Below are positions 4,446 through 54,919 of a stretch of 64,000 bases of DNA, in pieces. The notes under the pieces are model-generated. The model had not been told where the DNA came from, did no database searches, and saw only the letters and a program-made list of their open reading frames with translations. The position numbers and the translations under genes were made by a program. Position 1 is the first letter of the stretch. Each line of letters begins with the position of its first letter. Source of the stretch: Candidatus Aenigmatarchaeota archaeon (GTDB taxonomy: Archaea; Aenigmatarchaeota; Aenigmatarchaeia; PWEA01; JACQIF01). The DNA is taken from positions 785,090 to 849,089 of the forward strand of contig CP066684.1 in assembly GCA_016432325.1 (NCBI GenBank), in the 5' to 3' direction.

Positions 4446-5825
4446 TCAGCGTGAGCCCTGTATCTCATAGACGACAACGGCTTCCGGCTTGCCCCACTGG
4501 CTGAACGAACGGAGTTTCGCGTAGTGTTCGCGCGCGTACGCGGCCGCGTATTCAGGCACGACTGGTTCGAAGTCGTATATCAGCGCGTACCTCGCGGTTA
4601 TCTCAGAAAGGTGGGCGGGATCCTTCGGGAAGACGAGGACCTCCTTGCCCGCGAGCACTTCTATCCACGGGTTGACGGCATAGACCGATTTGTTTATGGC
4701 GCGCTCGCCCCCGGGAGGATATGCGGAAGAGTAGTACTCGGATAGTATTGCCCCCTCCGGAAGCGTCTTCAGATACTCCGCGGCCTCCCTGAGCGCCTTT
4801 CCGCCGTCAAAGTCCCCTGCCACCCTGTCATTCGCGGCAGAGAGGGACAGGGCGCACATGGCGACAACGCCGAGTGCGATGAACTGCCTGTTGTTGGGAG
4901 CGAGCCTCCACCAGCTGGCCGCGACCAGCGCGAAGGCCGGGAAGAACGCGACAAGGAACCGCACCTCCTTGTGCGTCTGCAGGCTGAGCGTCAGCACTGC
5001 AACCGCGCATATGGTGAGGAACAGGCTGGGCCTCCTGCGCGTCACTTCGAGAGTGGCGCCTGCCAGCACGGCCAGCGCAAGAGGCCCGAATGTCTCTGCG
5101 GCTCTCGCCGCGTAAAAGTACCACGGATCGGGCTGCAGGCCCGTGACTATCGTAAGGCTCGTCATGAGCCCTCCGAAAGGATTGCCGTAGTATGCGGTTC
5201 CGAGCAGGAAGAGGGGGATGAGGCCGACCAGAGAGCCGGACACGAACGCAGCCGCGGAACGCGGCCCGGACTTCTTCAGCAACCACAGTGCGTATATCGG
5301 AAACAGTATGCCTCCAGGATAGCGGGCCATGAAGGCGAGGCCCGTCGCCACGCCGGCCAGGAACGGGTGCGCGATTTTCTTGTGCCCGTAAAGGAAGAGC
5401 AGGGAAAGCGCGAAGAAGAAGGTGAAGAGGGGCTCTGTCAGCGTCTTGCTCTGGAAGAAGAGGAACTGGCTGAAGGATGCGAACACGGCCGCCGCCATAA
5501 GGCCTTCTGTCCGGCCGTAGACGCGCCTCCCCGCGAGGTAGACCAGCGGTATGGTTGCGAGCCCGAACAGCAGGACGACCACGCGCGACGGGAAGACTGT
5601 ATCAATGCCCAGAGCAGCCAGCACGAGAGGCAGAAGAGGCTGGCGGAACGACTCCACGGACGTGCCAGAGTACAGGGAATAGTGGCCTTCCATCAGGCCG
5701 TGAGAGAGGCCCAGATAAACGGCTTCGTCCCACCACATGCCCTCGTTGACAAAAAGGAAGGACGTCGAGTACGCGGCAGAAAGAACAACCACGAGAAGGA
5801 AGGCGTGGTCCCAGCCCAGTTTCAT
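4446..5825 (-). CDS. GT-C fold glycosyltransferase (GT39/ArnT/PMT-like, dolichyl-phosphate-sugar dependent)
   Basis: 459 aa polytopic membrane protein; N-terminal region resembles PMT/ArnT family (first loop after TM1 with WWDEAVY). Confidence 0.55.
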   Translation of the reverse strand: MKLGWDHAFLLVVVLSAAYSTSFLFVNEGMWWDEAVYLGLSHGLMEGHYSLYSGTSVESFRQPLLPLVLAALGIDTVFPSRVVVLLFGLATIPLVYLAGRRVYGRTEGLMAAAVFASFSQFLFFQSKTLTEPLFTFFFALSLLFLYGHKKIAHPFLAGVATGLAFMARYPGGILFPIYALWLLKKSGPRSAAAFVSGSLVGLIPLFLLGTAYYGNPFGGLMTSLTIVTGLQPDPWYFYAARAAETFGPLALAVLAGATLEVTRRRPSLFLTICAVAVLTLSLQTHKEVRFLVAFFPAFALVAASWWRLAPNNRQFIALGVVAMCALSLSAANDRVAGDFDGGKALREAAEYLKTLPEGAILSEYYSSAYPPGGERAINKSVYAVNPWIEVLAGKEVLVFPKDPAHLSEITARYALIYDFEPVVPEYAAAYAREHYAKLRSFSQWGKPEAVVVYEIQGSR

Positions 5826-14594: not shown

Positions 14595-15668
14595 TCAGGC
14601 CGTCATAACGTATAGCTCGTCTGCGCTGTACGCACGGTCGAATATCCTCACTTCGTCCACGAGCCCCTGATAGTTGTTGCCGTAGCCGCTGGCTACCTGC
14701 CAGAAGTTGTCCGACGGCGTCAGCACGCGCGGGTCGTTTACAGTGGCGATGAGAACGCCGTCGTAGTAGTATTTGCTTCTGGGGTTTGTCGTGTTGTCGT
14801 AACTGTAGACCAGATGGTGCCACGTTCCGCGCGCGTCAGAGACGTTTGCGCTTGCGCTCGGCCATCCGGCGCCTCCCCAGTAGAACGCCCACGCCAGGCT
14901 CGTCGCCGGCGCTGTCTGGTTGGACCATCCCATGGCGAACTCGAGCCTCGACGCCTGCGACGGGCCTACGACAACCCATCCCCGCGCCTGGGCCGGATGC
15001 GTGTTGGTTGTGATGTTTGACGGATTTGCCCACGCCTCGACGGTGAAGCGGTCGAATGTGCCGAGCTTGATTGTCATGTTGACGCCGTCTACAGGCGCGC
15101 CGTCTGTGTTCGTGAAACGGAGGGCCGAGCCGAACTTGCCGGTCGTCCGATTAGGAGAGCCGATGAGAGCGCCGTCGCGGCCGTTGCCGCTCGAGTCGCG
15201 CACGACAGTTCCGGAACCTTCCTCGAATCTGAGGTCCTGATAGGCGCCGTCTGCCGTGTCGAGTTCGATGTTTACGGAATCCGAGAAAGACGGACCCGCT
15301 ATCCTGAGGACGTGTTCCCCGCGGCCGCCCGCCCATAAACCTTTCACTGTTATTCTGCCTGTCGAACCCTCTGCGATATCTCCGGGCATCGAGTAGTTCA
15401 GAATGGTGCCGTCGATTGACACGGCCAGAGAATCTTTCTTGATGGATTGTACTCCTATGTTTCTCACAATGGCGTCTTGCTTTTCAACGCCATCTATCTT
15501 GAACGACGTGCCGAGCGCGCCGACCAGCTCCTGCGAACTCCTCTGCCCGGCTTCCGTTTGCGTTCCTGAAAGACGGCCGGTGAAGACCGTATACGCTCCG
15601 GCGAGCGAGAGGACTATGAGAACGAGAATTATCGAGGCAATTACAGGCGATATCCCCTTCATCACCAC
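14595..15668 (-). CDS. archaeal type IV pilin-like protein with LamG (concanavalin A-like) domain
   Basis: Class III signal peptide (MVMKG|ISPVIASIILVLIV), C-terminal LamG-like region ending in LVDEVRIFDRAYSADEL. Confidence 0.65.
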   Translation of the reverse strand: MVMKGISPVIASIILVLIVLSLAGAYTVFTGRLSGTQTEAGQRSSQELVGALGTSFKIDGVEKQDAIVRNIGVQSIKKDSLAVSIDGTILNYSMPGDIAEGSTGRITVKGLWAGGRGEHVLRIAGPSFSDSVNIELDTADGAYQDLRFEEGSGTVVRDSSGNGRDGALIGSPNRTTGKFGSALRFTNTDGAPVDGVNMTIKLGTFDRFTVEAWANPSNITTNTHPAQARGWVVVGPSQASRLEFAMGWSNQTAPATSLAWAFYWGGAGWPSASANVSDARGTWHHLVYSYDNTTNPRSKYYYDGVLIATVNDPRVLTPSDNFWQVASGYGNNYQGLVDEVRIFDRAYSADELYVMTA

Positions 15669-41412: not shown

Positions 41413-41460
41413 GCTGTTCGAATGCCGAAACATTTGAACTTTTCGAACACGGTTCGAAAA
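41413..41460 (+). promoter_or_regulatory. cluster of TTCGAA palindromic motifs upstream of small membrane protein gene
   Basis: GCTGTTCGAA, TTTTCGAACA, GGTTCGAAAA within 50 nt; the same motifs recur at 44991-45031. Confidence 0.3.
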
Positions 41461-41482
41461 TACCCACTAGGGTGAAAAAACA

Positions 41483-43574: not shown

Positions 43575-44219
43575 TCAGCGCCTTCTGCGACCCTTGTACT
43601 CGTCTTCGTAGCTCTTCGCGAGGTCTGCTACGACGTCCTTGAGTCCGAGGCCGAGCGCTATCGCCACGCCGAGACCGACCGCCGCTACCAAAATCAGCAG
43701 TATCTCGTCGACGATGAGCAATGGGATTCCTATCACCCGCAGAGCCACAGACAGGCCGAGGTACATCACCAGGAAGAAGATGATCTTTCCTGTAAGCTTG
43801 GAATAGACCGTCCTCGAGCTGATGAGCTCCTCCTTGAAGTAGATTCCCACGGCATAAGCGACGAGCATGACGATGCCCGCTGCTATCATGTCCGGCAGGA
43901 AGCCTACGACTGTGCCCACGAACGCCGCCAGGGCTGCTATGCCCAGCACGTCCGCGGACGCCTGTATGAACACCAGATAGACTACCCAGCGGACTATCAT
44001 GTCCAGGAAGTGCGAAACGCTCACCTTGATGTGCGCTTCCTTCCTGAGTTCCTTGTCCACGCCTGCGCGCGTCAGGAGCTCGTAGGTCACCCTACCCAGG
44101 GCTCTGCCGATGATGTAACCCAGTGCCAGCAACACGACTGCTCCGGCCAGATTCGGGATGAATATCGCGAAACTGGTCCAAAGGTCGGTGGCAATGCCTA
44201 CTAAAACATCGACTGCCAT
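43575..44219 (-). CDS. membrane protein with repeated conserved TM-helix motif (MscS-associated TM_helix-like)
   Basis: 214 aa; repeated LAGAVVLLALGYIIGRALGRV-type helices, C-terminal basic tail. Confidence 0.4.
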   Translation of the reverse strand: MAVDVLVGIATDLWTSFAIFIPNLAGAVVLLALGYIIGRALGRVTYELLTRAGVDKELRKEAHIKVSVSHFLDMIVRWVVYLVFIQASADVLGIAALAAFVGTVVGFLPDMIAAGIVMLVAYAVGIYFKEELISSRTVYSKLTGKIIFFLVMYLGLSVALRVIGIPLLIVDEILLILVAAVGLGVAIALGLGLKDVVADLAKSYEDEYKGRRRR

Positions 44220-44338
44220 AGGCTACGTGCGCAGGAGGGGTTATTAAAGCTTTCTGCGCGAGGCGCGGAAAGTTAAGAACGGATGTTTTTGAGCTTTCTG
44301 ACTGACGTGCGTTGTGGCCAGAGGTTCAAAGTCATTGT

Positions 44339-44524
44339 TGGTGGGCCCGCTGTGATTTTCTCATACGCCGGAAGGCGTACTTTCCCTAAAGGCTTTTGGA
44401 CGGAAATGTCCAAAAGGCTTTGAACACAGGTTTCCAACATGTTAGCTCGTTCTTCATCTTCGCTTCAGAAGCTTAGAGACGAGTCCCCAAGCTGGAGTCC
44501 TAAACCAAGCTAGACTACGGGCCC
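44339..44524 (-). tRNA. tRNA-Pro (GGG or UGG anticodon) with two introns (anticodon loop and T-loop 59/60)
   Basis: Hand-folded: acceptor GGGCCCG/CGGGCCC, D-stem GUCU/GGAC, anticodon arm CCAGC-UUGGGG..-GUUGG split by an approx 44-nt insert, T-stem CUGUG/CACAG with UUCAAA plus an approx 62-nt insert containing a 10-bp hairpin, encoded CCA. Confidence 0.65.
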
Positions 44525-44549
44525 AGTGGGAATAACGCCACAGACCAAC

Positions 44550-44559
44550 CATTTATACT
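44550..44559. promoter_or_regulatory. single TATA element (ATTTATAC) centred between divergent tRNA-Pro and tRNA-Ala genes
   Basis: TTTATA at 44552-44557 lies about 28-30 nt from the 5' ends of both divergent tRNA genes (44524 minus, 44583 plus). Confidence 0.4.
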
Positions 44560-44582
44560 TGTTTACCAGAACGTGCCTTCGA

Positions 44583-44831
44583 GGGCAGGTAGTCGTAGCA
44601 CGCTTTTGCGAAAAGCGTGGGCAAAACGACGCCACCTATGGGCAGGTAGTCTAGACAGCACACTTTAAAAAAAGTGTGGGCAAAACACAAATTGCCAGCT
44701 GGGAAAACGGAATGACGTCACGTTCGCAACGTGAAGGTCGCGGGTTCAAACCGGGCTTTCTTCCAAAGAAAGCACGGGTGCAAAGAAGGTAAGCCTTCCG
44801 GCACTCAACGGAAATCCCGCCCTGTCCACCA
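44583..44831 (+). tRNA. tRNA-Ala (CGC) candidate with T-loop intron and a large insert in the D-arm region
   Basis: Hand-folded: acceptor GGGCAGG/CCUGUCC with G3:U70, anticodon arm UCACG-UUCGCAA-CGUGA, T-stem GCGGG/CCCGC with UUCAAA plus 64-nt insert, encoded CCA; 5' module GGGCAGGUAGUC occurs twice (44583 and 44640); D-arm not resolved. Confidence 0.5.
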
Positions 44832-44863
44832 TTTTTATACTTTACACTCTGTACGTTCCTTGC

Positions 44864-44973
44864 GGACCCGTAGCTCAGGTGGTTAGAGCGCTGCTCTGAT
44901 AGTTGGACATCGATACGTTGATGTCCTTTTGGTCAGGCAGAGGCCCGGAGTTCAAATCTCCGCGGGTCCACCA
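44864..44973 (+). tRNA. tRNA-Ile (GAU) with canonical 33-nt intron after position 37
   Basis: Hand-folded: acceptor GGACCCG/CGGGUCC, D-arm GCUC-AGGUGGUUA-GAGC, anticodon stem CUGCU/GGCAG, loop CUGAUA|intron|A, T-arm CGGAG-UUCAAAU-CUCCG, encoded CCA; TATA (TTTTTATA) about 25 nt upstream. Confidence 0.75.
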
Positions 44974-44990
44974 CAAATTTCAAGGCAAGG

Positions 44991-45055
44991 ATTTTCGAAC
45001 AAAGTTCGAAAACTTCGAACCGCTGTTCGAAGACAGTTGAAACGCGAAGCGTTTC
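44991..45055 (+). promoter_or_regulatory. TTCGAA motif cluster plus GAAACGC-GAA-GCGTTTC hairpin upstream of small membrane protein gene
   Basis: TTTTCGAACA, GTTCGAAAA, CTTCGAAC, GCTGTTCGAA (44991-45031) then palindrome GAAACGCGAAGCGTTTC (45039-45055); TATA-like CTTTTATA follows. Confidence 0.3.
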
Positions 45056-45103
45056 TTGGGGTCCACCAAAACCTTTTATACAGGGAACGTCGATAAACTC
45101 ACC

Positions 45104-45439
45104 ATGGCACTGCCCGCTATCGTCTGGCTCCTCGTTACGGCAGTAAACCTCATAGTTGAAGTGCTGGCCGCCGTCATTGCGTTCAATATGAGCCGCAAGG
45201 TCAAAGGCGACCTTCTGCGTAAGATGTTTATAACCTTCGGAATTATCATACTTCTCAACACGGCGGCTGACTTCAGCACATACCTTGTCTTTCAGGTGCC
45301 GTCAATCCAAGCAGCCGCCGCCGCGGCGAGCTCACCCCACAGCGATTTTGTCGTTGTCTTCAGGCTACTGAGCAACCTCGCACTCGTCTATATGATGACG
45401 CGTTTCGAGGAGTTCAAGAAGCAGTTCACATTCGGTTGA
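45104..45439 (+). CDS. small membrane protein
   Basis: Track ORF (TTG start at 45056) trimmed to ATG 45104 (MALPAIVWLLV); 3 TM helices. Confidence 0.4.
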   Translation: MALPAIVWLLVTAVNLIVEVLAAVIAFNMSRKVKGDLLRKMFITFGIIILLNTAADFSTYLVFQVPSIQAAAAAASSPHSDFVVVFRLLSNLALVYMMTRFEEFKKQFTFG

Positions 45440-45471
45440 GCTTTATATCTCTTATTCTCAAACTGGACTTG

Positions 45472-45697
45472 CGCCTGGGTGGCTCAGTGGTAGCGCCTTT
45501 TTGCTGCGGCAAAAACCCGCGGGAATGCACGGAACAACGTTCCGGCACATCGGGAGCGCACTCCCGAATGAAATCCGCGCCGCGCGCCTAAAGAGCACCA
45601 GACTCATAATCTGGGGGTCGTGAGTTCGAAGCCTTACTGCCCGAGAGGGCGGTAAGTGAAACGCGCAGCGTTTCAGGAGTTACTCACCCCAGGCACC
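45472..45697 (+). tRNA. elongator tRNA-Met (CAU) with two introns (D-arm approx 100 nt, T-loop 59/60 approx 51 nt)
   Basis: Hand-folded: acceptor GCCUGGG/CCCAGGC, D-stem GCUC...GAGC separated by a highly structured insert, anticodon arm CCAGA-CUCAUAA-UCUGG, T-stem GUGAG/CUCAC with UUCGAA plus insert, encoded CCA; TATA (TTTATATC) about 27 nt upstream. Confidence 0.65.
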
Positions 45698-54116: not shown

Positions 54117-54919
54117 TCCTCTTTCTTCGAATGCCGATCATTCGAAGTTTTCGAATCCTGCGATTCGATAGTCTCTGCTTTGCTGAAGTCTTCGTCCTCC
54201 TGTTCTTCGACGCGTGCTTCCTTGCCTTCGGAGACACGGACATATATCTCCTTGAAAGGCTCCTCCTGCTCGAGCGTGACGCGGCCGTCGTTGCTCATGT
54301 GCAGCACGCCGAGGAGCGATTGAACGATTTCGCGGCGCTCCCATTTCGTGACGAGCGACGAGAAGGGCATCGTGCCTGACTTGAGCTGTTCGACCGTCTC
54401 GGAGATGCGCGCGTAAAGCTCGTTTATCTTTTTGGTGACGTCGAAACCCTCGTCCGCTACGACCTCTTCCACGCGCTCGCGCGCCCGCTCGACCTTCACT
54501 TCCCTGCGCTCCTGCGTGCTGAAGGCCTTTTCCAGCGCGCTCACCAGCTCGTCCAGCGTGACGCGTCTTGTCGGAACGCGCTTGGCCGGAACCTGCAGTT
54601 CTGGCACCTTCGTTATGTCTATCGGCGGGCCCTGCGCTGCCGCGGCAGCGTTCCTCTGTTCCTCCTCCCACATGAGCACCTCGGCTTTCATGTGCAGAAG
54701 CACGGCAGCGATCATTATCAGGCGCGCGGGGACCTTGAACTCCAAAACGCCTGCTTTCGTTACGTAAACGCGAAACGCGTCGGCGAGCTTGACGACGTCC
54801 ACGTCCCACGGGTCCATTCCTTCTTCTCTTATAACGTATTCCAGAACCTCCTCCCAGGACGCTTCCTTGGACGCCAGGTCCACTATGCCGGCCTCGTCTA
54901 TCGTTGAATCCACCTGCAC
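54113..54919 (-). CDS. scpA: segregation and condensation protein A (kleisin)
   Basis: 268 aa; overlaps scpB by 4 nt; same strand as smc. Confidence 0.65.
   Translation of the reverse strand: MQVDSTIDEAGIVDLASKEASWEEVLEYVIREEGMDPWDVDVVKLADAFRVYVTKAGVLEFKVPARLIMIAAVLLHMKAEVLMWEEEQRNAAAAAQGPPIDITKVPELQVPAKRVPTRRVTLDELVSALEKAFSTQERREVKVERARERVEEVVADEGFDVTKKINELYARISETVEQLKSGTMPFSSLVTKWERREIVQSLLGVLHMSNDGRVTLEQEEPFKEIYVRVSEGKEARVEEQEDEDFSKAETIESQDSKTSNDRHSKKEE

Follow-up and report, generated by a model that had tools for sequence, protein, structure and literature searches.

How does an archaeal tRNA gene cope with a second copy of its own 5' end? The origin of interrupted, split and permuted archaeal tRNA genes is argued from few snapshots, and the locus described here, from a tiny groundwater archaeon of the Candidatus Aenigmatarchaeota (DPANN), adds one, in which part of a gene that looks as if it still works, exon plus intron, has been duplicated in tandem. 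It lies in a stretch of 64,000 nucleotides, the whole of which is called the window below, and it raises the question of which copy supplies the mature 5' end and what the other copy is. A processing question follows, namely how a leader of 57 nt would be handled where the other tRNA genes of the organism have almost no leader.

Positions 44583-44831 were initially annotated as a tRNA-Ala candidate with a CGC anticodon, and this identity holds: read from its sequence, the stretch is a tRNA-Ala(CGC) gene with two non-canonical introns, one in the D-loop (position 15/16) and the other in the T-loop (position 59/60). The gene is compared below with its ortholog in L021, a 22.5-kb Logan contig found via a 76% identical copy of a neighbouring 214-aa protein. 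The version of that protein in the window matches, at 100% identity, one from an NCBI Candidatus Aenigmatarchaeota MAG, on an 875-kb contig. The promoter and the parts of the gene are the following.

44552..44557, + strand: TATA box TTTATA, the sole TTTATA, 26 nt upstream of copy-1 G1
44583..44639, + strand: copy 1, degenerate head-to-tail duplicate of 57 nt (alignment and Smith-Waterman score; fold; degraded splice-site geometry)
44599..44619, + strand: hairpin 1 of copy 1, CACGCUUUU-GCG-AAAAGCGUG, 9 bp (read from the sequence; fold)
44640..44654, + strand: probable functional exon 1 (tRNA positions 1-15), GGGCAGGUAGUCUAG, 15/15 identical to L021 exon 1
44655..44707, + strand: D-loop intron, 53 nt, position 15/16 (fold z = -3.37; relaxed bulge-helix-bulge register)
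44708..44750, + strand: exon 2, with the D-loop remainder, D-stem 3' strand, anticodon arm (anticodon CGC at 44725-27), variable loop, T-stem 5' strand and T-loop up to position 59; 41-42/43 identical to L021 (cloverleaf alignment)
44751..44814, + strand: T-loop intron, 64 nt, position 59/60 (fold z = -3.20)
44815..44831, + strand: exon 3, with U60, T-stem 3' strand CCCGC, acceptor 3' strand CCUGUCC, discriminator A and encoded CCA; 17/17 identical to L021

The acceptor strands GGGCAGG and CCUGUCC contain the identity pair G3:U70, as read from the sequence, and the anticodon arm UCACG-UUCGCAA-CGUGA has a 7-nt loop with U33. The T-arm had been called clear, which is true of its stem (GCGGG/CCCGC) but not of the arm as a whole, since the 64-nt intron interrupts it; taking out 44751-44814 restores the T-loop UUCAAAU. 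The D-arm, said to be unresolvable by eye, becomes GUCU-AGCGGAA-UGAC once 44655-44707 are taken out, with U13-U22 as its sole mismatch. It was derived by reading backwards from the anticodon arm, which gives UGAC-G (22-26), and forwards from the copy-2 acceptor strand, which gives GUCU-AG (10-15). With copy 2 the conserved A14, G18 G19 and A21 are all present in the D-loop AGCGGAA, whereas copy 1, which reads GUC-G-UAG, has an inserted G that puts a U where the conserved A14 belongs. The spliced 75-mer, lacking both introns, is called tRNA-Ala(CGC) by ARAGORN, and RNAalifold with other tRNA-Ala(CGC) sequences folds it into a standard cloverleaf with a 7-bp acceptor stem, in which only 13:22 (U-U) is unpaired. 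The unspliced genomic sequence 44583-44831 gives neither an ARAGORN call nor a match to Rfam RF00005, the latter as expected with two introns outside position 37/38. At a relaxed threshold ARAGORN calls tRNA-Ala for nearly all splice-junction variants, and thus it cannot pick the junction.

The two introns share a common design, two hairpins enclosed by a 3-bp closing helix, and their folds have z-scores between -3.2 and -3.4. In the D-loop intron, the closing helix pairs 44656-58 with 44699-701 (CAG/CUG), hairpin 1 spans 44659-78, and hairpin 2 pairs 44679-83 with 44692-96. The splice sites were read in a bulge-helix-bulge register checked against the canonical tRNA-Ile intron of the same window, which gives the D-loop intron a central helix GUCU/GGAA, bulges AGA and AAC and an inner helix of 4 bp, and the T-loop intron a central helix UUCA/CGGA with the T-stem as outer helix. 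The initial annotation had pointed to bulge-helix-bulge motifs as a structure check, and both introns do fit a relaxed register, in which three of the four central pairs form and a helix of 4-5 bp flanks them on one side, but a generic scan for such geometry is non-specific (274 matches versus 236 in shuffled sequence), so that the splice sites rest on the cloverleaf requirement and on the ortholog comparison. A Pfam scan of 10 ORFs of the window found no endonuclease among them. A bulge-helix-bulge-like AGGU/ACCU cut at exactly 44639/44640 was dropped, as it is without flanking helices and expected by chance (about 0.2 by our own estimate, for a fixed cut site).

As judged by alignment, the repeated module is the 5' exon together with most of the D-loop intron, copied once in tandem. 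The sequence GGGCAGGTAGTC occurs at 44583-94 and again at 44640-51 (offset 57 nt, 100% identity), AAAAG(C/T)GTGGGCAAAAC occurs at 44611-27 and at 44670-86 (94% identity), and the local alignment of 44583-44639 with 44640-44707 has a score of 41, which is reached by 0 of 5000 shuffles (shuffle maximum 27); the tandemly duplicated 5' module of the initial annotation is thus confirmed. Tandem Repeats Finder at score 30 does not call it. The accompanying statement, which places both modules after a single acceptor strand and before the anticodon arm, is incorrect, as each module begins with its own acceptor 5' strand. Copy 1 consists of a pseudo 5' exon, GGGCAGGUAGUC-G-UAG, and an intron remnant, and it sits between the sole promoter and the intact copy 2, which runs from 44640 onward. 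Positions 44200-45521, the whole tRNA cluster included, have the same sequence (100% identity) in a second Logan assembly, L001 (SRR12113430), and copies 1 and 2 differ at several positions, which together make an assembly artefact very unlikely. A third match to the repeat, GTGGGCAAA(A/T)C at 15023 of the window, lies inside a coding region and was set aside as a chance match.

The boundaries of the duplication suggest how it might have arisen. An ancestral segment of about 61 nt, comprising tRNA positions 1-15 and nearly the whole D-loop intron, would have been duplicated head to tail, with the junction at a GGG microhomology (GGGCAGG / GGGAAAAC). The homology between the copies extends from position 1 through GCCA(C/G)CU and ends at GGG, a triplet that begins both the exon and the 3' splice region, and this shared end points to slippage or unequal exchange at the microhomology.

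In L021 the tRNA-Ala gene lies behind the same promoter, CATTTATACTT, and contains a single 5' module, D-loop and T-loop introns at the sites shared with the window, and a third, canonical intron (about 77 nt, anticodon loop), which is absent from the window gene (two introns versus three). The exons of the two genes are identical at 73-74/75 positions, while the introns are 73-81% identical (19-27% of columns differ), with 44/54 aligned columns identical in the D-loop intron and 52/71 in the T-loop intron. The closing helix of the D-loop intron covaries, being CAG/CUG in the window and CGG/CCG in L021, and the T-loop central helix UUCA/CGGA (3/4 pairs) of the window corresponds to UUCG/UGGA (4/4 pairs) in L021. 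This combination of conserved exons and diverged introns argues that a working gene has been kept in both lineages. Comparison with orthologous loci, which the initial annotation had envisaged, finds the hairpin conserved and the duplication absent, so the duplication would be either specific to the lineage of the window or lost in L021, the one outgroup. Among the contigs from five relatives of the neighbouring protein, the tRNA-Ala ortholog was present in L021 only. Homolog searches with two other flanking ORFs returned the query itself only, and a same-species look-up using a 111-aa protein gave no new variant. A scan of the genome collection with the 21-mer of the anticodon arm matched one gene of Nanoarchaeia and, beyond that, only bacterial tRNA-Ala(CGC) genes unrelated to this one; of two metagenome scans, the first had no matches and the second found 18 unrelated archaeal tRNA-Ala genes, 0 of them with a 5' duplicate.

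That the only TATA box precedes the first copy, as noted initially, is correct, and this gives the upstream copy a claim to be considered. On the other side of the box, 27 nt away, is G1 (44525) of the tRNA-Pro(GGG) gene, which diverges on the minus strand, and the box is apparently a bidirectional promoter common to this gene and to copy 1 of tRNA-Ala. It belongs to a repeat family, D2, ACC(A/T)TTTATA, that recurs upstream of tRNA-Ile and of a gene for the 111-aa protein. The spacing from TATA box to +1 is 24-28 nt in every tRNA gene that was read, whether in the window or in L021. By this measure a 57-nt leader is atypical here, the other tRNA genes seen having near-leaderless spacing. The same holds for a protein gene nearby, where the TATA box at 45075-80 ends 24 nt ahead of the ATG (45104) of the plus-strand 111-aa membrane-protein ORF, implying a leaderless mRNA.

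Nevertheless, copy 2 probably serves as the 5' exon of the working gene, and copy 1 would be a relic, a structured leader in need of removal. This reading follows from the identity of the copy-2 exon with the L021 exon, and from the U14 of copy 1 and its loss of the closing helix, as copy 1 is without the ACAG strand of that helix. When paired with the single 3' splice site, copy 1 forms 2/4 central pairs and an inner helix of 2 bp, whereas copy 2 forms 3/4 central pairs and an inner helix of 4 bp. When folding is left unconstrained, copy 1 closes on itself in a stem-loop of its own (-20.5 kcal/mol, z = -2.33), and it is copy 2 that engages the 3' acceptor strand (exon 1 with 44821-27 in the minimum-free-energy fold); constrained folds are isoenergetic, with -95.8 kcal/mol for the acceptor stem on copy 1 and -95.9 kcal/mol for that on copy 2. 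On the favoured model, transcription would start at copy-1 G1 or within 2 nt of it, given the TATA spacing. The splicing endonuclease and a ligase would excise the copy-2 D-loop intron and the T-loop intron at relaxed bulge-helix-bulge motifs, yielding GGGCAGGUAGUCUAGCGGAAUGACGUCACGUUCGCAACGUGAAGGUCGCGGGUUCAAAUCCCGCCCUGUCCACCA preceded by the 57-nt leader, and the self-folded leader would be cut off by a 5' processing activity, presumably RNase P. Copy 1 would then be a decaying relic and not an exon. Since the TATA box is placed for copy 1 while copy 2 is taken as functional, the model needs such an activity for the leader. Rfam detects no RNase P RNA in the 64-kb window.

The same spacing can be turned around. 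If copy 1 gave the mature 5' end of a leaderless transcript, a composite intron of about 110 nt (44598-44707), including the copy-2 exon 1, would be spliced out, the 26 nt between TATA box and G1 would match the other tRNA genes here, and the copy-1 G13 could pair with U22, where copy 2 has U13-U22. The equal energies of the constrained folds allow this, and there is precedent for life without 5' maturation, as Nanoarchaeum is free of RNase P and transcribes leaderless tRNAs. Additionally, Aenigmarchaeota are not listed among the phyla in which a survey of archaeal RNase P proteins found all five subunits (PMC4919917). Such a transcript would, however, carry U14 instead of the near-universal A14 and would be spliced at a site with the poorer central and inner helices, and the exon of the ortholog is identical to copy 2, not to copy 1, so we consider this arrangement unlikely. 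A broader version, prompted by the apparently near-leaderless transcription of tRNA genes here, is that the upstream copy is a real 5' exon or that both copies are used, with a decoy exon inside the intron of about 110 nt and either two tRNA-Ala isodecoders made by alternative endonuclease splicing or a maturation independent of RNase P; to this we attach a slim probability.

It is also improbable that the duplication inactivated the gene and left a young pseudogene, with GCG codons read by tRNA-Ala(UGC). The CGC isoacceptor is dispensable in many archaea and the long leader is abnormal in this genome, but the exons from copy 2 on differ from the ortholog at 1-2/75 positions, against 19-27% of intron columns, and the splice-site geometry is intact in copy 2 and in the T-loop intron. 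The copies might instead be attachment-site repeats of a mobile element integrated into the tRNA gene, given that tRNA genes and introns have been reshuffled between the window genome and L021 and that a tRNA-Thr 5' fragment of Caldiarchaeum offers a precedent (PMC3293823). This is very improbable, as the copies abut at 44639/44640 with zero sequence between them, the homology is continuous from exon through intron up to the junction, and no integrase-like ORF is present nearby; searching viral contigs for the intron motif and for exon 1 turned up chance matches or none. A split or permuted tRNA gene is ruled out by the single TATA box and the colinear exons.

Returning to the favoured reading, in which copy 1 is a relic, the hairpins of the two copies need an explanation, since they had been taken as paired through compensatory change under selection on RNA structure. 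The copy-2 hairpin is present, CACACUUU-AAAA-AAAGUGUG with 8 bp at 44659-44678; the initial count of 8/5/7 for stem, loop and stem differs trivially. A single pair has changed on both sides between the hairpins, stem pair 4, which is G-C in copy 1 and A-U in copy 2. The A-U form also occurs in the L021 tRNA-Ala intron, and the G-C form also in the D-loop intron of L021 tRNA-Ile, which starts CACGCUUU and finishes AAAGCGUGGGCAAAUC...GCCAG. By their sequences, this tRNA-Ile intron and the tRNA-Ala D-loop intron are one intron family, across which the hairpin is conserved with covariation. Given the G-C variant in the paralogous intron, selection in place on copy 1 is not needed, and the change may be a polymorphism of the intron family or the result of gene conversion. 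The double-sided change stands, but the selection drawn from it does not necessarily follow. Separately, the loop region of the copy-2 hairpin (44663-44674) has mutated to CTTTAAAAAAAG, a TATA-like sequence inside the D-loop intron, which could fire spurious transcription about 25 nt downstream.

Heavily disrupted tRNA genes are reported from several DPANN lineages (PMC5829648, Kaneta 2018), and multi-intron tRNA genes with non-canonical introns have been described in Thermoproteales, ARMAN-2 and other DPANN (Sugahara 2008, as related in PMC4033280; Kaneta 2018, PMC5829648). Like these, the genes seen here are interrupted two to three times, in the D-loop, anticodon loop and T-loop, by short structured introns; they would use relaxed bulge-helix-bulge motifs and are overlooked by standard tRNA finders; unlike these, the tRNA-Ala gene has an Aenigmatarchaeota host and a tandem copy of exon 1 and intron upstream of its functional 5' end. 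Thermoproteales are also known to have intron families common to different tRNAs (Fujishima et al. 2010, as summarised in PMC4033280), and the family joining the D-loop introns of tRNA-Ala and L021 tRNA-Ile resembles them, as does the likeness seen between window tRNA-Met and L021 tRNA-Ile, in the D-region intron of the former and the T-loop intron of the latter, although both cases are confined here to two genomes of one DPANN lineage. In Caldiarchaeum subterraneum a tRNA-Thr 5' fragment stands beside tRNA-Thr-II (PMC3293823), also an extra 5' fragment near an intron-containing gene, but it lies 1.8 kb away across a recombinase-encoding element, whereas the copies here abut with no element between. 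For permuted tRNA genes, tandem duplication of intron-containing tRNA genes is the standard origin model, and an extra 5' half is found in Ostreococcus (PMC3978253). The present head-to-tail duplication of intron-containing tRNA sequence is like this proposed evolutionary intermediate, except that only the 5' exon and intron are duplicated, the gene is neither permuted nor split, and there is a single promoter. We found no published account of an exon and intron duplicated back to back inside a single archaeal tRNA gene. The duplication is a small evolutionary accident in a fast-changing tRNA gene family, not a new kind of RNA.

The surrounding cluster has the same character. Rfam detects only its two simplest tRNA genes and ARAGORN none. 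Its other members are:

44340-44525, - strand: tRNA-Pro(GGG)
44864-44970, + strand: tRNA-Ile(GAU)
about 45473-45690: tRNA-Met, with multiple introns
46570: an intron-less tRNA

When 44864-44970 and 45473-45690 of the window are compared with 1243-1550 and 460-640 of L021, the tRNA-Ile gene has one intron in the window and three in L021, and one of these three, in the T-loop (GCGCCTTTTTGC...GCAAAAACCCGCGGGAA), has its homolog in the D-region intron of the window tRNA-Met. As the sequences read, intron content turns over fast between the two genomes, introns having been gained, lost and shared among tRNAs over a short evolutionary distance. Moreover, the tRNA-Pro(GGG) gene adjoins a mechanosensitive-channel-like gene in all relatives (L021, at 4720-4884, L022, L023 and L043), while its orientation, its T-loop intron (none in L043) and the surrounding gene order vary, and tRNA genes appear to mark rearrangement breakpoints.

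Directly 3' of the tRNA-Ile CCA lies a structured element of about 92 nt (window 44974-45068, + strand) that ends in GTCCACCA, so that 8 nt of the tRNA 3' end stand as a direct repeat on both sides of it. Its homolog in L021 (3455-3553, - strand) instead comes after tRNA-Ala, and the sequences downstream of the two elements are unrelated. RNAalifold on the two sequences gives a closing helix GGAU/GUCC and three hairpins with 3 compensatory pairs; the element may be mobile, or it may be a 3' counterpart of the 5' duplication. Finally, a pair of TTCGAA hairpins, UUUUCGAAC-N3-GUUCGAAAA and CUUCGAAUG-N5-CAUUCGAAG, has three occurrences in the 64 kb, intergenic or at gene ends, and looks like a dispersed hairpin-repeat family:

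41420-41470, - strand: TTCGAA hairpin pair
44985-45035, + strand: TTCGAA hairpin pair
54120-54170, - strand: TTCGAA hairpin pair
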